Origin: Pseudomonadota bacterium
GTDB lineage: Bacteria; Pseudomonadota; Alphaproteobacteria; Rickettsiales; UBA1997
Assembly: GCA_009925685.1 (NCBI GenBank)
Contig: RFYG01000002.1
Coordinates: forward strand, 1 to 41,789
DNA length: 41,789 nucleotides
Direction: 5' to 3'
Made by a program: the position numbers and the translations under genes. The first letter of the stretch is position 1. Each line of letters begins with the position of its first letter. This document shows, one piece after another, positions 4,846-39,577 of the stretch. The notes beneath the pieces are model-generated. The model was not told the DNA's origin, made no database searches, and saw only the letters and a program-made list of their open reading frames with translations.

Positions 4846-4942
4846 GAGTTTAATTTGCTAAAATTTGGTTTTATTAACAAATTAAGAATTATTTTTTTAT
4901 TTAAAATCAATAATTTTTATTAAACTCTAAACTTGTAATTTA

Positions 4943-5940: not shown

Positions 5941-6705
5941 TTATGATTTTTTTGAATAACATTCGGCGGGATTAAAATTTTGCTTTTTGAGCTTGGAAAG
6001 GCGCTCATTAATGAAGTGACGCATAAAATTCATTTCTTCAACCGAAATTTGCCTTTTACCGCTCTCACTTTCATCGATAAGATTTTTTATAACCTTGAAA
6101 GCCATGCATGAATCACCTTTTTTTTCACCAATAAAAGCCGGCATTTGCCTAGTCCAAAGTGGCGCTTCTTTGGCATTATTTTGCGCTAATTTTTGTGCGA
6201 AATACAAAGATTTATCGAGGTCGTTCAGATCTTTTTTGGCAATAAAAGTCGCTTGAAAAAGCCACCACCAATTTTTATCAATATCGCGTGAAGAGTGCTC
6301 GTCAAGATATTGTAAAACATATTTTAAATCGCCTTTGTTTTGAGTTTGAGTATAATAGTAACTAGCTAATGAAGGAATTAATCGCGAATCTGCGTTTAGT
6401 TTGTCTAAAGTCGACATCCAATCATAAACTCGCGAATAATCATATTTATCCAAACTAACGAAACCCGCAAAAATATCGCCCGAATTTTGTAATCTGAGCG
6501 CTAAGGTTCTAAATATGAACTCATTATCCCCAAAAGATGAGGCTTTTATGAGATGATTTGAAGGGGCGGGGGGGACTATTTCGTCAACTAATCTATATTT
6601 TTCGGTTGATTTCCAAAAAAAAATCTGCGCAACAAAAACTGCAACAAACAACCAAAAAAAAATTTTATGTGAGTATATGTAAAAAAATAATTTGAAATTC
6701 TTCAC
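5941..6705 (-). CDS. Hypothetical membrane-anchored protein, last gene of the secretin operon
   Basis: The protein is 254 aa with a single N-terminal hydrophobic helix (IFFWLFVAVFVAQIFFW) followed by a soluble, probably helical domain. I recognise no family signature. Its start lies 14 nt downstream of the stop of the preceding gene. Confidence 0.6.
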   Translation of the reverse strand: MKNFKLFFYIYSHKIFFWLFVAVFVAQIFFWKSTEKYRLVDEIVPPAPSNHLIKASSFGDNEFIFRTLALRLQNSGDIFAGFVSLDKYDYSRVYDWMSTLDKLNADSRLIPSLASYYYTQTQNKGDLKYVLQYLDEHSSRDIDKNWWWLFQATFIAKKDLNDLDKSLYFAQKLAQNNAKEAPLWTRQMPAFIGEKKGDSCMAFKVIKNLIDESESGKRQISVEEMNFMRHFINERLSKLKKQNFNPAECYSKKS

Positions 6706-6719
6706 CGCGTAAACAAAAC

Positions 6720-7481
6720 CTAAAATTGCTTTTTCTTAAAATCATGAAATGCCATAAAAATCATTAATGGCAAATATATGGTGGATTGAAAAAAAATGAC
6801 CCACAAAACCATGTCGTCTTTTACGCCGTAGATTGGCCAAGAGCTCTGAGAAAAAAGGTCAAGCCTTGGAAAAATCACCGATAAAATTTTTAAAGCCATG
6901 CCCAACTCTCCATGTTTTACAGTGGTTAGTTCATCAGTAAAATCAATCGTCATAACAAACATGCCCATCAAACGAGAGATGGCGTAGAATCCAAAGGAGG
7001 CCAAAATTGCTGAGAAAGAATTTTTAAGTATCAACGAACTAAGAAGAGCAAAAGATATTACTATTAGATTTTCAGAAAGGGTGGTTAAAAACCAGTATAA
7101 GGCTCCGGTTTTGTCAACTTTGAAAACCAGCAAAACCGCTGAAATTATGGGCAACAAAATTAATAAATTTGCAATAAAGAAACCCAATAAATAGCCAAGA
7201 ATAAATTGTTCGCGTGAAATTGGTTTTGATAAAATAAATTCGATTTCTTTGTTATCAAAAGCGCGGGCAACATTGATGCAAACGAATAAAATCATACCTA
7301 ACGATAAAATTGTTCGCGAAGTGCCTAGGGTGTATGCTATTGATGATTGATTTTGCTCAACCATCATGGTCGAGCCCAGAAAAATCGATACTGCGAAGGC
7401 TAAAGCAATAAAAATTAGCAAGCCCAGATAGAGACGGTCTCTAAGACCGTTTTTGAGGATATACTTTAGAATGGGATTCAT
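6720..7481 (-). CDS. Polytopic inner-membrane protein, ABC-2 / NosY-like permease (tentative)
   Basis: The protein is 253 aa with about six hydrophobic segments. The stretch EIEFILSKPISREQFILGYLLG resembles the E-x-G-T-x-E-x-LLS-x-P-x-SR loop of ABC-2 permeases. No ATPase gene is adjacent. Confidence 0.55.
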   Translation of the reverse strand: MNPILKYILKNGLRDRLYLGLLIFIALAFAVSIFLGSTMMVEQNQSSIAYTLGTSRTILSLGMILFVCINVARAFDNKEIEFILSKPISREQFILGYLLGFFIANLLILLPIISAVLLVFKVDKTGALYWFLTTLSENLIVISFALLSSLILKNSFSAILASFGFYAISRLMGMFVMTIDFTDELTTVKHGELGMALKILSVIFPRLDLFSQSSWPIYGVKDDMVLWVIFFQSTIYLPLMIFMAFHDFKKKQF

Positions 7482-7483
7482 AG

Positions 7484-9091
7484 TTAAAAATAGTTTCGGC
7501 GATTGACATCATATTTTTCTTCAAGCTCGCGATCAACCTTATTAGCGCGCGTTCCGCTATTGATAATTGTGGCTTTAATAAAAATAACCGTTTCACTAAC
7601 TTCGAGTTTTTTGTACATCGCTTTAAATAACCAACCCAGAATTGGCACATTTCTTAAAAAAGGCACGCCAGCGCTTTCGCTATCGGATGTATTTGTCATC
7701 AAACCACCCAAAACAATTACATTTCCGGAGGCGACTTTAACTGCGGTGTTTAACTCTCTTGTATTTATAATCGGAACTTCATTTTGATACTTAAATTTAG
7801 AGTCATATCCAGTGGTTGGGTCTATAACGGAACCAGTATTGTTGGTAATTTTTGGCTGAATATTCATTGTAATTTCACCAGTTTTTAAATTAATCGAAGG
7901 CGTAATTTCAATTTGCGTACCAACATCTTCTTCTTGTTTAGTTGAGGTAACGGTTCCTAAAACAGTTGAAGCTGTTCCTCCGGTTGTTGACCCTTGGGCA
8001 CTTTGCTGAGCTTCCACCTTAAAATACACCAATTTGTTGGTAAAATTTAATGAGGCTTTTTGATTATTCATGGCATGCAATCTTGGGTTTTGAATAGTTT
8101 TGGTGACCCCAAACTTTGACATGGCATTGACGGCAACATTTATATCTCCCCCAAATATTTTAATATTTTGAAGAATTGGAGCTATTGTCCCAGTCGATGA
8201 AGATGATGCCGAAGAAGTGGATGTTGAAGAAGGGGAATTAGAAATATACGATTGGGAACCGTTTACACTGAAATTAATAAAGTCTTTTGACCAATCAATT
8301 CCGGCTCTAAATTCATCATTAAGTTTTACTTCAACAACCTTTGCTTCAATCAGAACTTGCGCTGAAGCTTGAGTGTTTACATCGGCGAGATATTTTTCAA
8401 TTGCACCATGTTGTCTTTGAGTGGCGTAAACAGTAAACATTCCAGCCGATTTATTAGAAGTAACGTTTGATTGAGAACTGCCTCCATCCGAAGGTTCGGA
8501 AGTAAAAATGTTTTCGATGTTAGTTTGAACCTCATCCCAAAGTGGAGAACCGTCGACATAATCAACAAAATAATTTTTCATGAAAGGCTTGTCGGTTTCA
8601 AAATATAAAACCTTGTTTTTGTAGGAATAGCGCAATTTTCCTTGAGTAGCAATCCTGTCAATAATTTCTTTGAATGGACGATTTTTGGCATTGATAATGA
8701 CCCCTCCAGAAATTTTTGGATCAACATCCACATCGATTTCGGCGATCCTTCCTAATTCGATCAAAACATCTCGCAAAGGAACTTGATCGGTTACATAAAA
8801 TGAGATTACTTTTTCACCGCCAATTTTTGGCGTCGGAACCGGAATAATTGATTTGTTAATTCGAGGTAACGGGGCTTCGGTTTTTTCAAGATCTTGTTTG
8901 TCTTTTTTATCTTTTTCCCTTGATCTAATTACTGTTTCTTTGATGTCTTTCTCGGTCATTCCAACTTCATCAAGGGTTGGATCGAGTCTTCCTTGAGAGC
9001 ATGAAAAAATTCCGACCAAAAATAGCATTGCGAAAAGCAATTTTATGCAATTAAAAAAATTGTTTTTGGGACTGTCTATTTGGGGACTCAC
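7484..9091 (-). CDS. Secretin family outer-membrane channel with a lipoprotein signal (MshL / PilN / BfpB-like)
   Basis: The protein is 535 aa. It has a signal peptide with the lipobox IFS-C (Cys31, codon 8999-9001). An N-domain (ISFYVTDQVPLRDVLIELGRIAEIDVDVDPKISGGVIINAKN) is followed by the secretin core (VLIEAKVVEVKLNDEFRAGIDWS) and the C-terminal hallmark GVPFLRNVPILGWLFK. Confidence 0.8.
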   Translation of the reverse strand: MSPQIDSPKNNFFNCIKLLFAMLFLVGIFSCSQGRLDPTLDEVGMTEKDIKETVIRSREKDKKDKQDLEKTEAPLPRINKSIIPVPTPKIGGEKVISFYVTDQVPLRDVLIELGRIAEIDVDVDPKISGGVIINAKNRPFKEIIDRIATQGKLRYSYKNKVLYFETDKPFMKNYFVDYVDGSPLWDEVQTNIENIFTSEPSDGGSSQSNVTSNKSAGMFTVYATQRQHGAIEKYLADVNTQASAQVLIEAKVVEVKLNDEFRAGIDWSKDFINFSVNGSQSYISNSPSSTSTSSASSSSTGTIAPILQNIKIFGGDINVAVNAMSKFGVTKTIQNPRLHAMNNQKASLNFTNKLVYFKVEAQQSAQGSTTGGTASTVLGTVTSTKQEEDVGTQIEITPSINLKTGEITMNIQPKITNNTGSVIDPTTGYDSKFKYQNEVPIINTRELNTAVKVASGNVIVLGGLMTNTSDSESAGVPFLRNVPILGWLFKAMYKKLEVSETVIFIKATIINSGTRANKVDRELEEKYDVNRRNYF

Positions 9092-15109: not shown

Positions 15110-16141
15110 CTAGACAAATAATTGGCTAAAATTTCTTCTTTTTCTTTTTTTCCATAGACCTTCGTGATAAGCGCAAGAGGCTAACAAAGGTATAACGGAA
15201 GTCGCTTCGGCGTAAACCATTTGCTCATATGCGGTGTCAACTTTTCCCCATGAACAAGCTTCTTTAAGAGTTGAAGATGAGCAAGCTCCGTCTCTCTGGT
15301 CGGCAACTGTAATTTGAATTGCATATTTGTGCATATCAACTTCTTTGCCAAGAATTTCAGCGCATACAACGGTATCTTGAACAAAGTTTTTAGGAACTCC
15401 ACCTCCAACCATCAAAAGGCCGGTTGTGCCAGCTTTGATTTTTATATCGGTGAGCTCTCTAAAATCTCTAATTGAGTCAATTGTTAAATGCGATTTTGGA
15501 TTTTTAACCTGATGAAGAACCAAGCCAAATCCAGCCGAAGAGTCGGTAAAAGCTGGGCAAAAAATTGGCACGTTATTTTCGTATGCCAGTTGAATTAGTG
15601 ATTCTTTTTTCTTGGATTTTTTTGTCAAATATTTGCCCATTTCTGCGATAAATTCTCTTGAGGAATATGGCTTGGGTTTGAGAGAATTAGCAATTTCAAA
15701 AATTGTGTGATCGCATTTTTGCAAATCTGCTTCGTCGATATAAGTATCATAAATTCTATCGATATAATTATCGCGCAAAAATTTGTCGTCGATAAAGGGA
15801 GTGCCTTGATAATGCTTAAAACCTAAGGCCTCAAAAAAATCCATATCAACTATCGATGCACCAGTCGCAACAATTGCATCGATCATATTGTATTTAATCA
15901 TGTCAGCATAAAGCTTCATGCAACCGCCAGCCGAGGTTGATCCAGCGAGAGTTAAAATTATTGAACAAGACTTATCAGCCAACATCATGTTAAAAATTTC
16001 AGTTGCGCGCGCCAAATCTCTTGACGTAAAAGACATATCATCCATTTGCTTAACGATTGGTCGAGCATCAAAAGAGGTTATGTCGATGTGTTTGACTTGT
16101 CTCTTAAGTAAATCTTTTTTAGAAATTTTTTTTGCAGTCAT
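15110..16141 (-). CDS. Deoxyhypusine synthase-like protein (candidate homospermidine synthase)
   Basis: The protein is 343 aa when started at the internal ATG 16139-16141 (MTAKKISKK...), which lies 4 nt after the ODC stop. DHS family blocks present are LAGSTSAGG, ATGASIVDMDFFEALG and MVGGGVPKNF, the last containing the lysine. Confidence 0.8.
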   Translation of the reverse strand: MTAKKISKKDLLKRQVKHIDITSFDARPIVKQMDDMSFTSRDLARATEIFNMMLADKSCSIILTLAGSTSAGGCMKLYADMIKYNMIDAIVATGASIVDMDFFEALGFKHYQGTPFIDDKFLRDNYIDRIYDTYIDEADLQKCDHTIFEIANSLKPKPYSSREFIAEMGKYLTKKSKKKESLIQLAYENNVPIFCPAFTDSSAGFGLVLHQVKNPKSHLTIDSIRDFRELTDIKIKAGTTGLLMVGGGVPKNFVQDTVVCAEILGKEVDMHKYAIQITVADQRDGACSSSTLKEACSWGKVDTAYEQMVYAEATSVIPLLASCAYHEGLWKKRKRRNFSQLFV

Positions 16142-16145
16142 TGTC

Positions 16146-17495
16146 TTATTTAGTTTGAGATTTATTAAGGTTTTGCTGATTTTTATGCAGATTATACATT
16201 GATTCAATTGGCTCGTCGGATACTTCAATTTGTAGATTTTGATTAAATCCATTGAACTCTGTTCTAATGCTTCTTGAATAAGCTCCAAGCTGGGCAATTT
16301 CGATATAATCACCAGCGCCAATATCATCCGGTAGATAAAATGGACCCTTCATGGTATCAAGAGAATCGCATGTTGGCCCATAAAAACCAAAAGCAATTTT
16401 ATTAGAAGATAATGATGAGCCTTTTTTAGCCCTAATGGCTTTTGTATGATAAATAAATCCCGGATATCCAGCATCAAAAAGTCCGCCATAGGTGCCATCA
16501 TTGATGTAAAGCATATGATTTTTTCGACCTTCAACCCTAACAACCAAAGAGCCGGATTCGGCCACCAAAGCTCTGCCGGGTTCACACCAAATTCTTGCAC
16601 CCTTGGCCAGATTTAGTTGGTTTATGGATTCAAAAATTTCATCAAAATAGCTCTGAAGATTAGGCGGTGTCATGGTTGGATAGGTCGAAGGAAAACCGCC
16701 CCCAACATCAAGAACATCAAGCTTAACGCCAGCATTATCAATCACTTCTTTTGCGATCATTATGGCATTACGATATTCAACCGGATCCATGCATTGAGAT
16801 CCAACATGAAAACATACGCCAAGCCTTGAGGAATGAGCGCGAGTTTTTCTGAGCAGGGATGAAGATTCTGAAGGTAGAATTCCAAACTTACCCGACAAGT
16901 CAATGGCCGAGTGCGAGTTGGGGATTGAGAGTCGAATGTGAAGACCTAAATCTTTAGCATTTTGGGTAATAAGTAAAATTTTTTCTAACTCATCAAAACT
17001 ATCGAGGGAAAAATCTTTTATGCCATAATTAAAATATGCTTCCTTAATAGCTTCAGGAGCTTTGATTGGGTGCATAAAATACATTTTTACTTTGTCACCG
17101 AAAAGTTCATTAATAAGCTTGATTTCCGACAAAGACGCTACATCGAAATGCTTAATACCGAAATCAAAAAGATACTTCAAAACCGATTTATCGGGATTGC
17201 TTTTTACGGAATACAAAATGTCTGTTGGATATTTATTGCATCTAAAATTTTTAGCAAAAAAACCTACCGCCTTTTTGAGAATTTTTGGCCTAATACAATA
17301 TACAGGGATAGAGGGTAAGTTTTGCTTAATAAATTCTTCAACAAGAACAAGACCTTTTTTCGCCTCATCTTCTTCGGAAAAATTGTTTAAATTTGTTTTA
17401 TTTTTAACTGACAAATCAAGATTTTTTTTATCTGTTTTGTGTAAATAATAAACATTTGAAGAAGATCTTCGGACGTACTCTTGTTCTGGCTCCAT
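16146..17495 (-). CDS. Ornithine decarboxylase, PLP-dependent, alanine-racemase fold (group IV Orn/Lys/Arg decarboxylase)
   Basis: The protein is 449 aa. It has the PLP-lysine block YSVKSNPD, then FHVGSQC, the Gly loop DVGGGFP, EPGRALV and GPTCDSLD. This layout resembles eukaryotic-type ODC. The first 50 aa or so form a low-complexity extension. Confidence 0.85.
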   Translation of the reverse strand: MEPEQEYVRRSSSNVYYLHKTDKKNLDLSVKNKTNLNNFSEEDEAKKGLVLVEEFIKQNLPSIPVYCIRPKILKKAVGFFAKNFRCNKYPTDILYSVKSNPDKSVLKYLFDFGIKHFDVASLSEIKLINELFGDKVKMYFMHPIKAPEAIKEAYFNYGIKDFSLDSFDELEKILLITQNAKDLGLHIRLSIPNSHSAIDLSGKFGILPSESSSLLRKTRAHSSRLGVCFHVGSQCMDPVEYRNAIMIAKEVIDNAGVKLDVLDVGGGFPSTYPTMTPPNLQSYFDEIFESINQLNLAKGARIWCEPGRALVAESGSLVVRVEGRKNHMLYINDGTYGGLFDAGYPGFIYHTKAIRAKKGSSLSSNKIAFGFYGPTCDSLDTMKGPFYLPDDIGAGDYIEIAQLGAYSRSIRTEFNGFNQNLQIEVSDEPIESMYNLHKNQQNLNKSQTK

Positions 17496-17856
17496 TTCTT
17501 TTTGTGAAAATCGAATTAATAAAAAAACAAAAATTAGACAATTTCTGTTAAAAAAAATAAAAGGAAGGGGCGCGAAATTAGAAATTTTATTTTAAATGTA
17601 AACAAAAAATTTCAATTTTAATAACATATTTTCTGATCCATAAAAATAGGCAAAAAAGTGAAGGAAAATTCATGCCAATTGAACATAAATTCAGCTCAAA
17701 AATTAGCGCCAAAACTAAAATCTTTAAGCCAATAATTTTATCATTCAAAAACTTATTAAAATTAAAGAGCAACAATTAACATCAATTGGCAATGACTATC
17801 TAATGTTAGGGGTTAGCGGTAATTATTAAAAAAATTATTTTAGATTAAAAAATGGT

Positions 17857-19741: not shown

Positions 19742-20092
19742 ATGAAAACACGCGCCAATTTTTTATTAACAATCTTTGTTGCTCTTATTTTTACAAATAT
19801 TGCCACCGAAGCTTTCGCTCAAACCCCCGAGAAAGGCTCTTCAAACAGCCTAAACGCTCCACAACAAAACCAAAATATCGACATCAAAAAAGCCAATAAT
19901 CAAAAAAAACAACAAAGATATAATCAAGCTAGTCCAGAGCAAAAACAAAAAATTGATAAACGCAGAGAGATCATGAAAAACCTTACTCCTGAGCAAAGAA
20001 ATCTTGTTAAGCAAGAAAGAGAAAGGCATCGTCAAGAAATGAAAAAAATTATTGGGGTTGATCTTCTTAGCGATCAACTTCCCATCGAATAA
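19742..20092 (+). CDS. Small secreted basic protein with SPEQ/TPEQ (LTxxQ-like) repeats
   Basis: The protein is 116 aa from the ATG at 19742. The longer track ORF overlaps tgt. The signal peptide is MKTRANFLLTIFVALIFTNIATEAFA|Q. The motifs SPEQKQKI and LTPEQRNLV sit in a Lys/Arg/Gln-rich helix. Confidence 0.65.
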   Translation: MKTRANFLLTIFVALIFTNIATEAFAQTPEKGSSNSLNAPQQNQNIDIKKANNQKKQQRYNQASPEQKQKIDKRREIMKNLTPEQRNLVKQERERHRQEMKKIIGVDLLSDQLPIE

Positions 20093-25704: not shown

Positions 25705-28665
25705 TTAAGATTTTAATGATTTAGCTAGATATTTGCCCGTCACCGAATTTTTATCTTTAGCAACAGCTTCGGGAGTTCCTTGGGCAACAATATATCCACC
25801 CTTCTCTCCGCCCGATGGACCAATATCAATGATCCAGTCGGCAGTTTTTAAAACATCAAGATTGTGTTCGATTACTAAAATAGAATTGCCAGAGTCAACG
25901 AGTTTATGCAAAACTTTTAATAATTTATTGATGTCTTCAAAATGCAGTCCTGTTGTGGGCTCATCGAGTATATATAATGTGTCGCCCGTTGCTTTGCGAC
26001 TTAACTCTTTAGCTAACTTGATACGCTGAGCTTCGCCCCCCGAAAGCGTCGTAGCGCTTTGTCCAATTTTAATGTAACCCAAGCCAACATCGCAAAGGGC
26101 CTTAAACTTTTCTTGAATATGAGGCATGTTTGAAAAAAAACCAAAAGCGTCCTCAGCGGTCATTTCAAGGATATCTGAGATTGATTTATCTTTATATTTA
26201 ATTTCAAGAGTTTCGCGGTTATAGCGCTTGCCGTAGCAAGTTTCACAGCGCACATAAACATCTGGCAAAAAGTGCATTTCGATTTTGATAACGCCATCGC
26301 CTTGACAAGTCTCACATCTCCCACCCTTAACATTGAACGAAAATCTTCCAACTTTATAGCCTCGAGCTTTTGACTCGGGCAAATTGGCATAAAACTCGCG
26401 AATAAATGTAAATGCTCCAATGTAGGTACAAGGGTTTGAGCGAGGAGTTCTGCCAATTGGCGATTGATCAATTTCAATAATTTTATCAATTAAATGATGC
26501 CCAGAAAGACCTTGATAAGGCCCCGGCACAACTCGAGCTTTGTTGATAATTTTATCGAGAGCAGGAAACAGGGTTTTGATGATCAAGCTAGATTTTCCTC
26601 CGCCCGATATTCCAGATACCGCAACAAAAATTTTAAGAGGCAAGTCGAGATCAACATTCTTAAGATTATTTAGCGTTGCGCCCTTTAGACGGATAACCTT
26701 TTGATTATCAATTTTGCGTCTCTTTTTTGGAATATCGATGGTTTTTTTGCCACTAAGATATTGTCCCGTAATGCTGTTGTCGTCTTGAATAACAAAATCA
26801 GGTTTACCCGACGAAATAATTTTACCTCCATGGATACCAGCCCCAGGACCCACATCAATCAGATATTGAGCTTCGCGCATCATTTCTTCGTCATGCTCAA
26901 CCACGATAACAGAATTTCCAAGATCGCGTAAATTTTTTAGGGTAGTTATTAACTTATCGTTGTCGGATTGATGAAGCCCAATCGACGGCTCATCTAAGAC
27001 ATAAATTACACCCGACAATCCTGAACCAATTTGCGAAGCCAAGCGAATGCGTTGCGCCTCTCCACCCGAAAGCGTTCCAGCTTCGCGATTAACAGTTAAA
27101 TATTCCAATCCAACATTCGACAAAAAACCGAGTCGTCTTGTAATTTCAATTAAAAGCCTGTCAGCTATTTGCAACTGCATTTGGGACAAGGCTTTTGGTA
27201 AATTTTTAAACCAGTCAATTGATTTTTCGACCGATAGCCTACTAACTTCGCCGATATGAAGACCGCCAATTTTAACCGAAAGAGCTTGGGGGTTCAAACG
27301 ATGACCATCGCAAACTTCACATTTTTTGGTTGCTTGATATTTCAAAAACTCTTCACCGCCATCTTCGTTGGCTTTTTCTTCAATGCGTTTTTTGAGGCTA
27401 TTAACGATGCCATCAAATGATTTTTTTATTTTTATCGCCTTAAGCCCATCTTCGATTTTAAGTTCGATTTCTTCATCGCCAGTTCCATAAAAAATTTTGT
27501 TTTTGATTTCGTCGGACAAAGTTTTAAAAGGCACATCAAGACTAAATTTATAGTGACTCGCCATGGCCGATAATATTTGTTGATAGAACCGCTCTTGAAC
27601 GCCTTGCCACATCGAAATGGCCCCTTGGCGCAAGGACAAATTTTCGTCTTCGACTAATAAATCAGTGCTAAAATAACGCTCAACTCCGAGGCCGTCGCAA
27701 TGTTTGCAAGCGCCGAATGGCGAATTAAAAGAAAATAATCTTGGCTCAATTTCTGAGATAGTAAAGCCCGACACCGGACAAGAAAATTTTTCACTAAACA
27801 AAACCACTTCGCCAACTTTAGCGGTCAAAAGTTCGTTTGATGAGTTGGAGAAATTTTCTTCAATAATTTCGCTGGATTTTAAAGTTGATTTTTTGGTTTT
27901 TGTTTTAACGCCGGATTTAATTTCGCTTGAACTATCGGGGAAACTTACAATTTCAATACACATCAAACCATCAGCAATTTTGAGGGCAGTTTCAACCGAG
28001 TCAGCGACGCGATTACCAAGGTCTTCGGCAATAACAATTCTATCGACAACAATTTCGATATCATGTTTTTTGTTTTTGTCTAATTGCGGAAGAATTTCGT
28101 TTAAATCATGAACTTTGCCGTCAACTTTGATACGCTGAAAGCCTTGCTTTCTAGCGTTCATCATCTCTTTTCTGAACTCGCCTTTTTGCGCGCGAACAAT
28201 CGGGGCCAAAATATAAATTCTAGACTTTTTTGGAAGCGACAAAATTTTATCAACAATTACTGAGGATGATTGGCTTTGAATAGGCTTGCCTGTAGCTGGC
28301 GAATATGGCACTCCAATTCTAGCAAATAATAAACGATAATGATCGTAAATTTCGGTAACGGTTCCAACTGTTGAGCGCGGGTTGCGTGAAGTGGTTTTTT
28401 GATCAATAGCAATTGCCGGAGAAAGGCCAGTTATTGACTCAACATCGGGCTTATCTTGCATGTCTAAAAATTGACGCGCATAGGCTGATAAACTTTCGAT
28501 AAAACGACGCTGTCCTTCGGCATAAATAGTATCAAAAACCAGCGATGACTTGCCTGACCCACTAAGCCCAGTTACAACTACTAATTCGTTTTTCGGAATT
28601 TCAATGCTGACATTTTTTAAATTATGCTCTTTGGCGCCGACGACTTTGATAAATTTTTCTTCCAT
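25705..28665 (-). CDS. uvrA: Excinuclease ABC subunit A
   Basis: The protein is 986 aa. It has two ABC modules, GLSGSGKSS and GISGGGKSS, each with LSGGEAQRI and LDEP(S/T)xGLH. It also has the zinc-finger cysteines CxxCxG... Confidence 0.97.
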
Positions 28666-28840
28666 GAAATTGTTTGCTAGATTAATTGTGAATGTGGCTT
28701 GAAGGGTAAAGATTTAATACATCGCAATAAAATATGCTATCAGTATTTTGGTTTTTTAAAAATTAAAATTTGTGCTTTTAACAAAATATTTTATCCAAAA
28801 AAAGGGGTAAAAACCTATAAATGTTTAATTTTAAATTATG

Positions 28841-29455
28841 TTAAAGAGTCAATATCAACTTATCGCGATAAAATTCATATTTATAGAATCGCTTTAAAAA
28901 ACTCATTCCAAGCAATGGCACCGAAAGCTCAGAACTCGTAACCGATGCCGAAACGTTGTAAAACTTAACGCCTGCCACATCTATTTCATTAAAATATGTA
29001 GAGGCTCCCGAAACCTCTCCGTTGGCGGTTCGAAATATTTTGTCATAATATAAATTTTCGATATTTATGCCTAATTTTGAAGCGAGTTTTTTGTCAATAA
29101 CTAAATCACTTGCGCCCGTATCAATCATAAATTTTATGGACTGATTATTGATTTTAATAGTTAAGTAATAGTGATTATCTTGAGATACAGAAATAACTAA
29201 TTGTTCGTTATTTTTGTTGATTGGTTTAGAAGGAAAAAGGTCGGAAGAAATGCGCTCCTTGGTGTCGCTAATTTCAAATCTAAAACTATAAAATGCCAAC
29301 AAAGCCAAGCCAATCCCAGACCAAATTGCGATATATTTGATAATTTTTTGAGTGGGCATTTGTCGATTTAAAAAACCCATCAACAAAACAATTATTAGGA
29401 TTAAAAGATATATTACGTTGCTTATTTCATGTGATGAAGGCGCGCTATAATCCAT
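28841..29455 (-). CDS. Membrane-anchored retropepsin-like (clan AA) aspartic protease
   Basis: The protein is 204 aa with two N-terminal TM helices. The soluble domain carries the single catalytic triad D-T-G (IDTGASDLV, codons 29114-29122). This matches the TIGR02281 / Rickettsia APRc-type architecture. Confidence 0.75.
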   Translation of the reverse strand: MDYSAPSSHEISNVIYLLILIIVLLMGFLNRQMPTQKIIKYIAIWSGIGLALLAFYSFRFEISDTKERISSDLFPSKPINKNNEQLVISVSQDNHYYLTIKINNQSIKFMIDTGASDLVIDKKLASKLGINIENLYYDKIFRTANGEVSGASTYFNEIDVAGVKFYNVSASVTSSELSVPLLGMSFLKRFYKYEFYRDKLILTL

Positions 29456-30536
29456 GGCAAATTTTGTTAATAATATTTAAGACTACTTCGTTTTCTTGGT
29501 CATTGCCAATAGTCGCACGCAGGCATGACGGCAAACCATAGGCCTTCATCTCACGAAAAATTATTGAATTTTCTAAAAGTTTGTTATTCGCTTTTTGGCA
29601 ATTTTCGGAGCTTAAAAAATCTATTAATACAAAATTAGCGATCGATGGGTAAAGCTTTATTTTGTTGATTCTAGATAGTTCTTGTTGATAGATTTTTAAC
29701 CACTTAGTGTTGTGGTTTTTAGATTCTTGAACAAAATTATCGTCATTAAGAGCGCTTAGCGCAGATATTTGGGCAGGGCCCGAAACATTGAAAGGTCCGC
29801 GTACTTTGTTTAAAATTTCAGCAATCTCTAACGAAGAATAACTCCAACCAACGCGAAGCGAGGCCAAACCATAAATCTTGGAAAAGGTGCGTGTAAGCAC
29901 TACATTAGGATTGTCATTGACGATTTTTATGGCATCGTAATAGTCATTTACATCAACAAACTCTTGATAGGCGTGGTCAAGCACTATTAGTATATTTTTT
30001 GAAACATTAGCGATTAATTCGAGAATTTCAGAGTTATTAAGATAAGAACCTGTTGGGTTATTAGGATTAGCAATAAAAATAATTTTGGTCTTTTTGGTGA
30101 TAGCATTTAAAATTTCATAAATATCGGTTTTGAGATTTTTCTCTTTAACCTTGACGGGCTTAGCCCCAACTCTTTTAGCTGAAATCGGATACATCAAAAA
30201 TCCATGCTCACTATAAATCACCTCATCGTCGATTCCTGCAAAAGCGCTTGTTAGAAATGAAATTATTTCGTCGGATCCAGCGCCACAAACGATTTGATCG
30301 GGGTTAATATTGTTTTTTAGACCTAAAGCATGCCTAAGATTCGAAGAGGCTCCGTCGGCATATCTAAAAACATCTTGCGCATGCTCGATATATGAAATTA
30401 AAGCTTTCGGACTTGCTCCAAGAGCATTTTCGTTTGATGATAATTTAATAATTTTTTTAGAATTATTGGTAATTTTTGATTTACCTGGAACATAATTTTC
30501 AATTTCAAGAAGGTATTGATGTGCTTGAGGTTTCAT
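29445..30536 (-). CDS. hisC: Histidinol-phosphate aminotransferase (class II aminotransferase)
   Basis: The protein is 363 aa. It has YVPGKS, KLSSNENALG, and the PLP lysine in TFSKIYGLASLRVG. Confidence 0.82.
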   Translation of the reverse strand: MKPQAHQYLLEIENYVPGKSKITNNSKKIIKLSSNENALGASPKALISYIEHAQDVFRYADGASSNLRHALGLKNNINPDQIVCGAGSDEIISFLTSAFAGIDDEVIYSEHGFLMYPISAKRVGAKPVKVKEKNLKTDIYEILNAITKKTKIIFIANPNNPTGSYLNNSEILELIANVSKNILIVLDHAYQEFVDVNDYYDAIKIVNDNPNVVLTRTFSKIYGLASLRVGWSYSSLEIAEILNKVRGPFNVSGPAQISALSALNDDNFVQESKNHNTKWLKIYQQELSRINKIKLYPSIANFVLIDFLSSENCQKANNKLLENSIIFREMKAYGLPSCLRATIGNDQENEVVLNIINKICHGL

Positions 30537-30538
30537 AA

Positions 30539-31573
30539 TTATTGATTGCGAATAGTTTTTAACATTAGTTCAACATTTTCGATTGGGGTTTGGGGCAAAA
30601 TTCCGTGACCTAAATTGAAAATAAAGGGTTTATTGGCCAAGGTATCGAGAATATTTTTAATCTCGGTTTCAATTTGTTTTTTGTCGCCAAAAGCTAATAA
30701 AAAATTATCGAGATTACCTTGAATAACTTTGTTTAAAGAGTTTTGCAAAACATCTTGCGCCCAAAATTTATCTATACTTTGATCGATCGCCAACCCATCA
30801 GAATCGACTTGTTTTGCAAATGCTTGATAATTAACCCCGATTGATTTTGGGAAATAAATTATTGGGGTTTTCGGATGATTTTGTTTTATAAAATCAACAA
30901 TTTCTCGAGCAGGATTTATAACCCATTTTTGAATTTGTTCGGGAGGTAAAATTCCTGCCCATGAATCAAATATTTTTACCACCGAAGCTCCGGCTTTAAT
31001 TTGCGAGTTTAAATAAAGCTTTAGCGAGTCAGTCAGAATCAAAATCAATTCAGCAAATAATTCGGGATGTTTGATTGCCACTTCTCTAACTTTATCAAAA
31101 TTTTTTGAACCACCACCTTCGATCATATAGCAAGCTAAGGTCCATGGAGCACCACAAAATCCGATTAAATCTTTATCAGATTCTAACTTTGAGCGCGTAA
31201 GTGATATAGCCTCATAAACCCTATCAAGATTTTGGTTAGTATTAGTAATTTTAAGCTTTGTTAAGTCTTTTTTGATATCAAATTCCGCTAATTTTGGCCC
31301 GTGGTTTTTGATAAAATCGACTTTAATTCCGAGGGCGTCAGGGATTACCAAGATATCGGAAAAAATTATCGCACTATCAAAATCAAATCTTCGAATGGGT
31401 TGAAGGGTAACTTCGCATGCCAATTGAGGGTTGTAACATAAATCTAAAAAATTGTTAATTTTGGAGCGTGTGGCTAGATATTCAGGTAAATATCTACCAG
31501 CTTGACGCATTATCCAAATCGGAGGAATTTTATAGCATTCTTTGTTAACCAAAACATTATATAATTTTCTCAT
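30539..31573 (-). CDS. hemE: Uroporphyrinogen decarboxylase
   Basis: The protein is 344 aa. The N-terminal signature PIWIMRQAGRYLPEY is followed by FDSWAG and NLGHGI blocks. Confidence 0.93.
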   Translation of the reverse strand: MRKLYNVLVNKECYKIPPIWIMRQAGRYLPEYLATRSKINNFLDLCYNPQLACEVTLQPIRRFDFDSAIIFSDILVIPDALGIKVDFIKNHGPKLAEFDIKKDLTKLKITNTNQNLDRVYEAISLTRSKLESDKDLIGFCGAPWTLACYMIEGGGSKNFDKVREVAIKHPELFAELILILTDSLKLYLNSQIKAGASVVKIFDSWAGILPPEQIQKWVINPAREIVDFIKQNHPKTPIIYFPKSIGVNYQAFAKQVDSDGLAIDQSIDKFWAQDVLQNSLNKVIQGNLDNFLLAFGDKKQIETEIKNILDTLANKPFIFNLGHGILPQTPIENVELMLKTIRNQ

Positions 31574-31827
31574 TATTTTTTAGTAATAATTATAAGGGCT
31601 GTTGATATGTTAATTAAAAATTATTAACAATTTTATTAACATTTTAAATTATTGTAAATAGAGCTTTTGCGATAGTTATTAACATTTTAAATTTGTTAAT
31701 TTTTAAGTTATTAACAATAATAAATTTGTTAAAAAAATGTTAATAAAGTTGATAAGTTTTTTGATAAAATATTTAATGTTTGTAAGTGGATATTTATCAA
31801 CAATTTATTAACACAATTATTAACATA
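31574..31827. other. Candidate chromosomal replication origin (oriC): ORF-free AT-rich spacer with clustered DnaA-box-like 9-mers
   Basis: Perfect TTATTAACA copies start at 31621, 31633, 31676, 31708, 31805 and 31817, with an inverted copy at 31738-31746. Variants are TTATCAACA (31794-31802), its complements at 31600-31608 and 31747-31755, and aGTGGATAt (31785-31793). There is one TTAA-N7-TTAA site (31729-31743). The region lies immediately upstream of hemE. Confidence 0.55.
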
Positions 31828-32085
31828 ATGAAAGAGATAATCCAAGAGAAGTTGATTCGAGAATTTGCTCCAAGTTTTTTAGAAATAATTAATAATTCTC
31901 ATCTTCACCAAAATCATTTTGTTGCACCAAACCTAGAGCTTCAAAATCAAACTCATTTTATGATTAAAATATCAGCACAATGTTTTAACGGGATGACTAA
32001 AATTAATATTCATCGACAAATAAATAAAATTTTAAGTGATGAATTTAAGAGAGGGTTGCACGCCTTGGAAATAAAGGTGATATAG
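31828..32085 (+). CDS. BolA family protein
   Basis: The protein is 85 aa from the ATG at 31828 (MKEIIQEKL...). It has NNSHLH...THFMIKISAQCFNGMTKINIHRQI...GLHALEIKV, which is the BolA pattern. The GTG-started upstream extension in the track runs into the repeat field and is not needed. Confidence 0.72.
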   Translation: MKEIIQEKLIREFAPSFLEIINNSHLHQNHFVAPNLELQNQTHFMIKISAQCFNGMTKINIHRQINKILSDEFKRGLHALEIKVI

Positions 32086-32089
32086 AATT

Positions 32090-33394
32090 TTAAGATTTTT
32101 TATCTTTATGACCTAACAAAGAAATTTCTTTCTTTTTTTCGCGTTCCTCAATTTCTTTTTCAGACAGATGGGTTGATTTGATAAGTTTGATATTGTCAAC
32201 AGCCTCTTGATTCACAGTGATGGATTTAATGTTTTTTTGTGAAGGAATTTCATACATTGAATCGATTAAAATATTTTCAACAATTGCGCGAAGACCCCGA
32301 GCCCCGGTTTTACGATCGATGGCTTTTTTGGCAATTTTTGATAAGGCTTTTTCTTCAAAATTAAGCTCAACTTTATCGAGGTTAAATAGTTTTTGATATT
32401 GTTTAACGATTGAGTTTTTGGGTTCAGATAAAATTTGGGTTAAATCCTCTTCGGTCAAGCCATCAAGAGGAGCAATAATTGGAAGTCTGCCAACGATTTC
32501 AGGAATTAAACCATATTTAATTAGATCATCCGGCTCAACATCACGAAAAATATCTTTACGAGAAGTATCCTCTTTGTCGCGAACATCGGCCTCAAAGCCA
32601 ATAGAAGCGCCAGCACCTCGTTTTGAAATGATTTTTTCTAAGCCTGAAAATGCACCGGCGCAAATAAACAAAATATTTTTGGTATCGATTTGCACATATT
32701 CTTGTTGAGATGATTTGCGACCCGGCTGAGTTGGGACTGAAGCCACGGTGCCCTCGATAATTTTTAATAAACCTTGTTGAACACCTTCGCCTGAAATATC
32801 ACGGCGTGAATTATCCTCAATTTTGCGGGCGATTTTATCGATTTCGTCAATATAAACTATGCCTCTTTGAGTTTTTTCAATGTCATAATTTGCAACTTGT
32901 AAAAGGCGTGAAATTATATTTTCAACATCGTCACCAACATATCCAGCCTCGGTGAGAGAAGTGGCATCAGCCATTGTGAAAGGGACATCTAAAATACGCG
33001 CAAGAGTTTGAGCAAGAAGGGTTTTTCCGCACCCAGTTGGCCCAATCATAAGAATGTTAGATTTAGAAATTTCAACCCCATCAGAACCGAGAAAAATATT
33101 GTCGATTCGTTTATAATGGTTGTAAACCGCAACCGATAGAACCTTTTTGGCGTAGTCTTGACCAACCACATAATCATCAAGAATTTTTAAAATTTCTTTT
33201 GGAGTGGGTTTTTCGCCGTTATTTTTGTAAAGAGGGGATCTTTTGCCTTCTTGTTTAAGAATGTCCATTCCGAGTTCAATGCACTCATTACAGATAAAAG
33301 CGGTTGGCCCAGCTATTAATTTTTTGACTTCATGCTGTGATTTACCGCAAAATGAACAATGCAAATTTTTTTCTTCGTCGTGTTTCTTAACCAT
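32090..33394 (-). CDS. clpX: ATP-dependent Clp protease ATP-binding subunit ClpX
   Basis: The protein is 434 aa. It has the N-terminal zinc finger CSFCGK...CNEC, Walker A GPTGCGKT, Walker [10 protein letters not shown], and sensor blocks. Confidence 0.97.
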
Positions 33395-33447
33395 TTTTTT
33401 AGTTTATTTTGTTATTTGGGGTTCGATAAGTTTTGGGGCCTCTATTT

Positions 33448-34059
33448 TTAGGGTCTTTTGTCGATTACTTTATCGATTATACCGAAATCGAGAGCTTTTT
33501 GAGGGGACATAAAATTGTCGCGCTCCATCGATTTTTCAATTATTGAAATTTTTTGCCCAGTATGTTTGGCGTAGATTTCGTTAAGACGTCTTTTAAGTGC
33601 CAAAGTTTCTTGAGCGTGTATTTCGATGTCGGTTGCTTGGCCTTGATAACCTCCGCTGGGCTGATGAATCATGATGCGAGAATTTGGCAAACAGAATCTT
33701 TTGCCTTCGGCTCCGGCGCATAAAAGCAAGGATCCCATCGAAGCGGCTTGACCGATGCAAACCGTACTAATATCGGGGCGAATATATTGCATGGTGTCGT
33801 ACATTGCAAGACCAGATGTGACAACGCCTCCCGGTGAATTTATATAAAAATAAATATCTTTTTTTGGATCTTCGGACTCAAGAAACAACAATTGAGCCAC
33901 TATCAATGAAGACACTTGGTCGTTGACTGGACCGGATAAAAATATAACTCTTTCTTTTAGAAGTCGGGAGTAAATATCGAATGACCTTTCGCCTTTTGGG
34001 GTTTGCTCAACAACCATTGGCACCAAATAATTGGCGTGATCGAAAATTTTTTCTGACAT
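33448..34059 (-). CDS. clpP: ATP-dependent Clp protease proteolytic subunit
   Basis: The protein is 203 aa. It has [22 protein letters not shown], the catalytic Ser in GQAASMGS, and His in IMIHQP. Confidence 0.97.
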
Positions 34060-36198: not shown

Positions 36199-36651
36199 AT
36201 GAAACTTTACAGCGGATTAATAAAACTCGACAAGTCTGGAAAAATCGAAGATTTGGCGGTTATCGATGAAAGCTTTTCCTTTAGCGCATTAATTTTCAAC
36301 CCTTTGTGGTTCTTGTTTCATCGCATGTGGCATGAATTTTTCGCTATAATCGCAGTTTTTTTTAGCTTCGATATTTTTTTATCCAAGTTATTTGATGACG
36401 CGTTGTGGCTTAAATTGACCTTCTTTGCAATGATTGCGTTAAATTCTAGATCGTGGTTGGTTGATCATTTAATTCAAAGAAAAAAATTTAAATTGGCCAC
36501 AATGATATTTGCCAAAAGCCCAGTCGATGCCAAGATCAATCTAGTTAAATATCTTGTCGAAAATAATGATAATAAATTTGCATCAATATTTAGTGAATCG
36601 ATATTGAATCCATTCATCTCAAGTCCATCGCAAAACAAAAAACACAAATAA
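36199..36651 (+). CDS. DUF2628-like small membrane protein
   Basis: The protein is 150 aa. FSFSALIFNPLWFLFHRMWHEFF is followed by two hydrophobic helices and a short soluble tail. This matches my recollection of the DUF2628 proteins that sit beside hisH in alphaproteobacterial his clusters. Confidence 0.5.
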   Translation: MKLYSGLIKLDKSGKIEDLAVIDESFSFSALIFNPLWFLFHRMWHEFFAIIAVFFSFDIFLSKLFDDALWLKLTFFAMIALNSRSWLVDHLIQRKKFKLATMIFAKSPVDAKINLVKYLVENNDNKFASIFSESILNPFISSPSQNKKHK

Positions 36652-39499: not shown

Positions 39500-39577
39500 G
39501 GCTCGCTTATGGCTACTTAGGTGGTTGCAAGGCTTGAATCTCTCAACTTTTTATTAACAATTAAAAAATTTAAATTT

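Follow-up and report, generated by a model that had tools for sequence, protein, structure and literature searches.

A predicted hemE-linked replication origin with A/T-shifted DnaA boxes in an uncultured low-GC alphaproteobacterium

Adjacency to hemE is an established landmark of replication origins in Caulobacter, Rickettsia, Wolbachia and their relatives (PMC1914354; PMC6393856). The best-described case is Cori of Caulobacter crescentus, which borders directly on hemE and includes the hemE promoter, and which uses several non-consensus DnaA boxes of moderate or low affinity (G and W boxes) together with an A/T-rich opening region (PMC6393856; PMC1914354). Replication from Cori needs transcription from a hemE promoter (PMC6393856). 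Origins have also been predicted for Rickettsia, Wolbachia, Ehrlichia and Anaplasma (Ioannidis et al. 2007; Brassinga et al.), again in A/T-rich intergenic DNA beside hemE; these predictions used the strict pattern TTATNCACA and report 2-4 boxes plus CtrA and IHF sites (PMC1914354). Genes at the origin boundary vary between lineages (PMC1914354).

The classical (Schaper-Messer) DnaA box is TTWTNCACA (PMC1914354; bioRxiv 10.1101/866236; PMC7561715). Departures from it have been described. Specifically, for Mycoplasma hominis, M. mobile and M. arthritidis the 9-mer TTATTAACA was put forward as a DnaA box; in these species it is read as a 7-of-9 match in very A/T-rich genomes and occurs in one or two copies upstream of dnaA (PMC2751442), and it is listed among the non-consensus boxes of T5-like phages (bioRxiv 10.1101/866236).

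Here we describe an intergenic spacer beside hemE in a 41,789-nucleotide stretch of DNA (hereafter referred to as the window). We consider it very probable (roughly 0.85) that this spacer is a DnaA-dependent chromosomal oriC of the hemE-linked type, predicted from sequence comparison to work with an A/T-shifted DnaA box, in an uncultured low-GC alphaproteobacterium. This reading is supported by motif enrichment, conservation, interchange with canonical boxes, a local switch in skew and synteny. The element is of an ordinary kind (i.e., a hemE-linked, DnaA-dependent oriC) in an unstudied lineage, and not a new kind of system.

The spacer and its box array

The spacer separates two divergent genes and is much poorer in G+C than the window as a whole (15% vs ~36%):

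31574..31827, no strand: hemE-bolA intergenic spacer, predicted oriC core; 254 bp, 15% G+C, box density unmatched elsewhere in the window, architecture shared by 15 related loci
30539..31573, minus strand: hemE (uroporphyrinogen decarboxylase), left boundary gene; TIGR01464, E=3e-114
31828..32085, plus strand: BolA-family gene, right boundary gene, divergent from hemE

Open reading frames of at least 20 aa in the spacer were limited to ones of 24-38 aa or extensions of bolA, which bears out an earlier reading, made from the sequence alone, that it holds no credible ORF. That sequence-only reading was also correct about the strand pattern of the neighbouring genes: leftward of the spacer, back to 23168, all eight features are on the minus strand, and beyond bolA come clpX and clpP (minus strand), followed by grpE and more genes on the plus strand. 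Rfam and tRNA scans gave no match in the spacer; the window carries three tRNAs, all of them outside it. No GANTC or GATC site was found in the spacer. Gene annotation of the window contained no dnaA, and among the collected loci tblastn with an approximate E. coli DnaA C-terminal query found this gene only in L016, an unrelated Rhodoblastus.

Seven exact copies of TTATTAACA lie in the spacer, six forward and one reverse. When one mismatch to TTATTAACA was allowed the total was ten sites, with TAATTAACA (31608-31616, minus strand) and TTTTTAACA (31727-31735, minus strand) among the additions. Across the whole window we counted 11 exact copies, as opposed to 0.95 expected from whole-window shuffles. 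Dinucleotide shuffles of the spacer gave a mean of 0.08 exact copies, with 0 of 5000 reaching 7; with up to one mismatch they gave a mean of 1.3 vs 10 observed, and again 0 of 5000 reached the observed value. Given that the enrichment survives shuffles of the spacer itself, it is not a by-product of A/T richness.

The spacer also stands alone when 9-mer density is compared with that of other intergenic DNA within the window, a check that the sequence-only reading had called for genome-wide: sites of the form TTWTYMACA (derived below) number 9 in the spacer vs 3 in total in the 19 other intergenic regions of at least 80 bp (~4.0 kb), and any other 254-bp stretch has 1 at most. All motif copies were reproduced by sequence reading and pattern searches at the coordinates given in that reading. 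Its count of a single isolated copy elsewhere (at 39551) was too low, as four exact copies lie outside the spacer (4871, 19763, 29465 and 39551). We also considered the A/T-rich stretch 17496-17856, which gave a few one-mismatch matches, as a second cluster and rejected it, as it has one TTWTYMACA site and no organisation. Taking a DnaA-box cluster to be at least 3 boxes with a mean gap below 100 bp in non-coding DNA, the 9 TTWTYMACA sites in 254 bp form such a cluster, while the strict pattern TTWTNCACA has 0 matches in the spacer, meaning that origin finders based on the strict consensus would miss this origin.

Alignment of 16 lineages (the window and 15 related loci; see next section) resolved the array into slots, which we numbered from S1 at the bolA edge to S13 at the hemE edge. 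From hemE to bolA, the window reads as follows:

31596..31599, no strand: GGGC cluster between S13 and the A/T tract; GCCC, GCAC or GCTC directly after the box in most lineages
31600..31608, minus strand: box S13, ATATCAACA, facing hemE and followed by the GC cluster and the A/T tract; the slot is TTATCCACA in L101 and AATTCACA or TAATTCACA in others, with ACA and the GC cluster conserved
31608..31616, minus strand: slot S12, TAATTAACA, a weak box conserved mainly as TAATTAA and overlapping S13 by one base; probably the hemE -35/UP region
31621..31629, plus strand: box S11, TTATTAACA, in tandem with S10 (12 bp start to start); TTTTTAACA, TTTTCCACA or TTATTCACA in relatives
31633..31641, plus strand: box S10, TTATTAACA, exact in 13 of 16 lineages
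31676..31684, plus strand: box S9, TTATTAACA, exact in 12 of 16 lineages
31708..31716, plus strand: box S8, TTATTAACA; TTTTTAACA-type in relatives, with the register moving by 1
31727..31735, minus strand: box S7, TTTTTAACA, in tandem with S6 (11 bp start to start); exactly TTATCCACA in L096 and L008, TTTTCCACA in L099 and L101
31738..31746, minus strand: box S6, TTATTAACA, forming with S7 the sole TTAA-N7-TTAAC of the spacer; TTTTCCACA, GCTTCCACA or TTATTCACA in relatives
31747..31755, minus strand: slot S5, TTATCAACT, weak; conserved as TTATTAAA/TTATCAA
31777..31785, minus strand: slot S4, TTACAAACA, degenerate in the window lineage; TTATCCACG in L093, TTATTCACA in L094 and L099, TTATTAACA in L102 and L103
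31785..31793, no strand given: AGTGGATAT (the aGTGGATAt element), present in the window
31794..31802, plus strand: box S3, TTATCAACA, 11 bp before S2
31805..31813, plus strand: box S2, TTATTAACA, exact in 12 of the 14 lineages covering the slot
31817..31825, plus strand: box S1, TTATTAACA, ending 2 nt before the bolA ATG

The array thus comprises about 11-13 predicted DnaA boxes of the form TT(A/T)T(T/C)(A/C)ACA, in four blocks that alternate in strand in the orientation of the window: S13-S12 (minus), S11-S8 (plus), S7-S4 (minus) and S3-S1 (plus). Tandem neighbours lie 11-12 bp apart start to start, i.e., with a 2-3 bp gap and one helical turn. The S3-S2 distance is 11 bp and the S2-S1 distance 12 bp in the lineages checked (the window, L098, L099 and L100/L101); S11-S10 is 12 bp in most lineages, and S7-S6 is 11 bp. 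The low-affinity arrays of E. coli oriC are alike in both respects, with same-orientation boxes 2-3 bp apart and arrays in opposite orientations. In the E. coli arrays, boxes follow a 2-bp spacing rule.

Compared with Cori, the spacer is shorter yet holds more boxes (11-13 vs 7), these are built on TTATTAACA instead of G and W boxes, GANTC is missing, and no CtrA or IHF site is positionally conserved. The boundary gene opposite hemE also differs: it is duf299/COG1806 in Caulobacter and Rickettsia and COG1253 in the Wolbachia group, while here the neighbour is bolA, followed by clpX-clpP. (In L171, a contig extending the window to the left, a CBS/CorC gene, COG1253-like, lies ~36 kb away.) The Rickettsia, Wolbachia, Ehrlichia and Anaplasma origins resemble this one in their setting, a low-GC alphaproteobacterium, and were predicted by the same criteria, namely how dense the boxes are compared with other intergenic regions, how A/T-rich and how conserved the DNA is, and whether the skew shifts (PMC1914354). 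By contrast, their strict pattern finds none here, and relaxing position 6 to A reveals a much denser, phased array.

Slot conservation and the identity of the 9-mer

Related hemE loci were collected at protein identities of 94% (L004-L007, L088), 77% (L089-L091), 72% (L092) and 60-65% (L093-L104, L008, L168-L170). Among the matches listed, a hemE alignment search of genome contigs returned mostly distant Alphaproteobacteria, the useful one being L008 (61%). Homologue records have labels like 'MAG: Alphaproteobacteria bacterium' or 'MAG: Rickettsiales bacterium', and the exact hemE product of the window also occurs in GCA_009927945.1 and several metagenome assemblies.

Every related locus (60-94% identity) has a cluster of TTATTAACA-like 9-mers within ~270 bp upstream of hemE, whereas loci with 50-53% hemE identity have no such cluster there. 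The ~13 slots keep the same order and orientation across the 16 lineages, and the distances of boxes from the hemE ATG are nearly constant (about -58/-70, -113, -145, -164/-175 and -231/-242/-254). The majority fraction of alignment columns was 0.85 in boxes vs 0.69 in other spacer columns (Mann-Whitney p=1e-11), and in the 94% relatives substitutions fell mostly between boxes. As with Cori, the array flanks hemE, and it does so at the same position in all 15 related loci. Synteny is retained as well: tblastn found bolA upstream of hemE and divergent from it in 11 of the 13 related loci searched, a BolA gene was also called in L168-L170, and the gene block grpE-clpP-clpX-bolA | hemE is kept in long contigs down to 60% hemE identity.

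The same alignment bears on which protein reads the 9-mer. We found that orthologous slots interchange TTATTAACA and TTTTTAACA with TTATCCACA, TTTTCCACA, TTATTCACA and TTATCCACG. A matrix pooled from 166 sites reads T(.89) T(.91) A/T(.67/.27) T(.96) T/C(.76/.17) A/C(.82/.18) A(.95) C(.95) A(.91), i.e., TTWTYMACA, with position 6 being A in 0.82 of sites and C in 0.18, and never G or T. In the window lineage all boxes have A at this position and the majority are TTATTAACA. Because the slots interchange with TTATCCACA, TTTTCCACA and TTATTCACA, TTATTAACA is best read as a DnaA box in which position 6 is relaxed to A or C. Of the 16 more distant alphaproteobacterial loci scanned, 10 had canonical TTATCCACA-type boxes, 1-3 in number, in the 600 bp upstream of hemE.

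The sequence-only reading had left two options for the unusual 9-mer, a shifted DnaA box consensus or a different origin-binding protein. The first is borne out by the slots, which carry canonical TTATCCACA-type boxes in relatives. The second is unnecessary given this interchange and the earlier examples from Mycoplasma and phages; indeed, TTATTAACA as a DnaA box has precedent in the Mycoplasma proposal (PMC2751442), although there the identical 9-mer occurs upstream of dnaA in one or two copies, whereas here 7 exact copies and their variants lie beside hemE in slots that swap with TTATCCACA. We also considered a site for Fur, Irr or another heme/iron regulator upstream of hemE, and rejected it on the grounds that the motif is asymmetric and swaps with exact TTATCCACA.

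Loci richer in G+C have a larger share of C at position 6 (Spearman rho 0.65, p=0.006), a trend consistent with A/T mutational drift inside what DnaA would tolerate. Three slots behave differently: S2, S9 and S10 keep exact TTATTAACA even where a relative has 40-42% G+C and TTATCCACA at its other slots. This retention suggests that selection may act on TTATTAACA itself, beyond what an A/T-drifted weak box would explain, and the basis could be a low affinity favoured by selection, a DnaA whose optimum has shifted, or an additional reader, for instance CtrA. We regard it as a possible but doubtful proposition that TTATTAACA is selected in its own right, whether through a shift in the DnaA optimum of the clade (with A tolerated or preferred at position 6) or through dual-use DnaA/CtrA boxes. 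If dual use were true, DnaA and CtrA would be competitors for the very same bases of the repeats, in a more compact form of the DnaA/CtrA antagonism of Caulobacter.

Strand asymmetry and alternative readings

We examined skew over 49.6 kb, i.e., the window plus a 7.8 kb left extension from L171. The cumulative G-C curve falls from the left end, has a single minimum at 28201 and rises thereafter. In the left 7.8 kb the skew is -0.036 and the curve is still falling, even though the genes there, a run of 13 to the left of the window start that includes rplM-rpsI, are all on the plus strand. A one-change-point model gained 9.96 log-likelihood units, whereas 300 permutations gained 8.26 at most. 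The change-point fitted best at 29118, with a 2-log-likelihood support interval of 27363-31393, and the spacer lies 3.0 units below the maximum, so the switch is close to, but not exactly at, the spacer. The local switch is thus real; it lies within 0.2-4 kb of the spacer and is not centred on it.

Skew was greater on the hemE side than on the other side in 12 of 12 relatives. In the window and L168-L170 the effect of side was about +0.067 for genes on both strands (plus-strand genes from 0.018 to 0.086, minus-strand genes from -0.058 to 0.009), meaning that the flip is not merely a coding-strand effect. The coding strands of hemE and hisC are slightly C-rich in the window lineage. Gene orientation is only partly as expected: clpP-clpX face the spacer in all lineages, and the plus-strand run with rplM-rpsI lies to its left. 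Taken with the slot-by-slot conservation of the array in 15 loci, this adjacent and significant change-point supports the proposal, already made in the sequence-only reading, of a chromosomal origin beside hemE.

The alternative that survives best, which we nevertheless consider unlikely, is that DnaA binds the array for regulation or titration, with the origin elsewhere (e.g., near dnaA); the array would then be a divergent hemE/bolA promoter under DnaA control or a sink for DnaA of the datA type. Such a role would fit the overlap between boxes and promoter-like hexamers (nine promoter-like sites vs 4.4 expected, and TTAACA resembles a -35 element), the positions of S1, which abuts the bolA ATG, and of S12/S13, which abut the hemE leader, and the distance of 2.5 kb between the skew change-point maximum and the spacer. 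However, 11-13 phased boxes in four alternating blocks far exceed known DnaA-regulated promoters, and the spacer is the most A/T-rich and least stable DNA nearby. Nor does the skew interval offer another candidate, as the sole other intergenic region within it (28666-28840) has no box, and linkage to hemE is the conserved position of origins in Alphaproteobacteria (PMC1914354).

It is very unlikely, in our view, that the repeats are read mainly by CtrA or by another transcription factor recognising TTAAC(A), with the 11-bp tandem pairs acting as full CtrA sites. The sequence-only reading had pointed to CtrA half-site geometry at 31729-31743, and a TTAA-N7-TTAA is indeed present there, the single one in the spacer, made by S7 and S6 (11 bp apart); on the minus strand it forms an exact TTAA-N7-TTAAC at 31728-31743. 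CtrA sites are typical of Caulobacter and Rickettsiales origins (PMC1914354; PMC6393856), at least one perfect TTAA-N7-TTAAC occurs in the spacer of 14 of 16 lineages, always from a tandem box pair, and S2, S9 and S10 keep TTAACA even in GC-richer relatives. Against this, a single TTAA-N7-TTAA is at chance level for the composition of the spacer (P=0.29), and lineages differ in the slot pair that forms the site (S7-S6 for the window group, S10-S11 for L102, L103 and L170, and S3-S2 for most others). The geometry is thus not conserved as such: in relatives S7 and S6 are two adjacent boxes reading ..CCACA, with no TTAA, and in L096 the window's site is TTTTCCACA-TT-TTATCCACA. As the CtrA-like sites arise at differing slots, wherever two boxes with A at position 6 lie 11 bp apart, a by-product of the box array is the simplest reading. 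Most boxes, moreover, are singletons or 12 bp apart, unlike CtrA geometry. All nine positions are conserved, T1, T2, T4 and the last A among them, as expected of a DnaA box but not of a TTAAC half-site.

Two other elements proposed from the sequence fared similarly. The IHF-like core WATCAANNNNTTR at 31795-31807 exists, as one match to WATCAN5WTR, yet it overlaps S3, and most relatives have ATTAA in place of its ATCAA; the aGTGGATAt element, taken for a reverse DnaA box, is already GTAGCTA in the 94% relative and was rejected as such a box. Neither the IHF core nor the CtrA site is supported as an element in its own right, as both lack positional conservation.

Finally, the reading of the repeats as iterons of a plasmid-type or mobile-element replicon, or as a functionless chance A/T repeat field, could appeal to short direct repeats in A/T-rich, ORF-free DNA being typical also of iteron origins and to several assemblies breaking at the spacer, but it is effectively refuted by synteny (grpE-clpP-clpX-bolA | hemE being chromosomal, with housekeeping flanks and no rep, integrase or mobile-element gene found near the spacer) and by conservation, as the 9-bp repeat unit belongs to the DnaA-box family and the shuffles and conservation exclude chance.

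A candidate unwinding site and uses of the prediction

Under the origin reading, DnaA binding, the unwinding site and origin firing are predictions, for which the layout of the spacer offers the following candidate site:

31556..31595, no strand: least stable 40-mer, candidate DNA-unwinding element; -36.2 kcal/mol (nearest-neighbour), the lowest stability in 31300-32100, overlapping the hemE start codon and 5' leader

Computed 40-mer stability marked 31610-31655 as a second low-stability stretch. The evidence for an A/T-rich, unwinding region consists of the 15% G+C and this computed low stability. In the proposed mechanism, DnaA-ATP would fill the phased arrays cooperatively and oligomerise, and the oligomer would open the least stable A/T tract, the best candidate being 31556-31595, just beyond the outward-facing S13 and GGGC; helicase loading and bidirectional replication would then follow. 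As the hemE and bolA promoters would be embedded in the origin, transcription may help opening, as reported for Caulobacter.

The arrangement of a box, a short GC cluster and A/T-rich DNA resembles the basal unwinding system (BUS) of B. subtilis (PMC8287927; PMC7561715), and the layout of S13, GGGC and A/T tract is conserved among the lineages. The likeness has limits. With DnaA-trios defined by a DnaA box, a short GC spacer and then at least 3 repeats of 3'-[G/A]A[T/A]-5', the register in the window fits 4 of the 6 triplets, and relatives do not share it, so that neither the presence nor the conservation of trios (3'-GAT-5' repeats in the BUS) is convincing here. Also missing is the pair of tandem boxes that in the BUS typically lies immediately upstream of the GC cluster, S12 overlapping S13 by one base.

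The result is a precise and comparatively validated oriC prediction for an uncultured alphaproteobacterial clade with small genomes. The slot alignment illustrates how, with falling G+C, TTATCCACA boxes drift towards TTATTAACA without any change in their number, spacing or orientation. It could be used in predicting origins in MAGs and in peak-to-trough estimates of replication rate from metagenomes, and the box variants form a natural series for studies of DnaA specificity. In one relative, hemE lies on a contig of ~0.95 Mb.

Gene neighbourhood of the proposed origin

In every lineage examined, clpP-clpX lies one gene away from the proposed origin and is transcribed towards it. Given that in Caulobacter the protease ClpXP removes CtrA, this linkage is curious, and it may be a coincidence. 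Other conserved neighbours of the locus are two unannotated 250-aa ORFs and an MshL/PilQ-type secretin; in one relative several N_methyl (type IV pilin-like) genes flank the proposed origin on both sides.

Window 32090-34059; about 7400-9450 in L168-L170 (loci with hemE 60-65% identical to that of the window): clpP-clpX
Window 5941-9091; L168 16215-19573; L170 532-4238 and 11039-12955: secretin, 250-aa ORF and pilin-like neighbourhood
L171:1-7792 (the leftward extension of the window), plus strand: genes including hemH, ybeY, a CBS/CorC (COG1253-like) gene and rplM-rpsI

The extension carries 13 plus-strand genes in a row, left of the window start, which would be head-on to a fork moving from the proposed origin; despite this gene run, its top-strand GC skew is still negative (-0.036).

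Spacer length and assembly breaks

In the relatives with 77% identical hemE (L089:3503-3750 and L091), the bolA-hemE spacer measures about 500 bp vs. the usual length of about 250 bp, with an additional, GC-richer segment of roughly 250 bp separating bolA from box S1, the box at the bolA end. Several independent assemblies break at, or slightly past, the spacer (31574-31827): four metagenome contigs (L004-L007) terminate shortly beyond bolA, and the NCBI contig RFVN01000034.1 covers just 36 bp upstream of hemE before it ends. These breaks likely reflect low coverage or low complexity of the 15% G+C DNA.

Isolated copies of the 9-mer

Within the window, the dominant 9-mer of the spacer, TTATTAACA, has four exact copies beyond the spacer, each isolated:

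4871-4879: isolated copy
19763-19771: isolated copy
29465-29473: isolated copy
39551-39559: isolated copy

Two of the four are intergenic (one upstream of an msbA-like gene, one after tgt), and a third falls at the beginning of a Rid-family ORF, a site that may belong to a promoter should the ORF actually begin further downstream. The four copies may be single DnaA boxes affecting transcription.

Other ORFs in the window

15110-16327: decarboxylase ORF
16146-17495: homospermidine/deoxyhypusine-synthase-like ORF
36199-36651: 150-aa ORF (DUF2628 in relatives)

The synthase-like ORF overlaps the upstream decarboxylase ORF over 182 nt; because its profile match begins at residue 71, translation of the synthase-like ORF probably begins at an internal ATG. 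The 150-aa ORF had a sub-threshold match (E=1.5e-6; 28.7 bits, cut-off 90) to the Ehrlichia Erum7620/ECH_0207 'putative T1SS effector' family.
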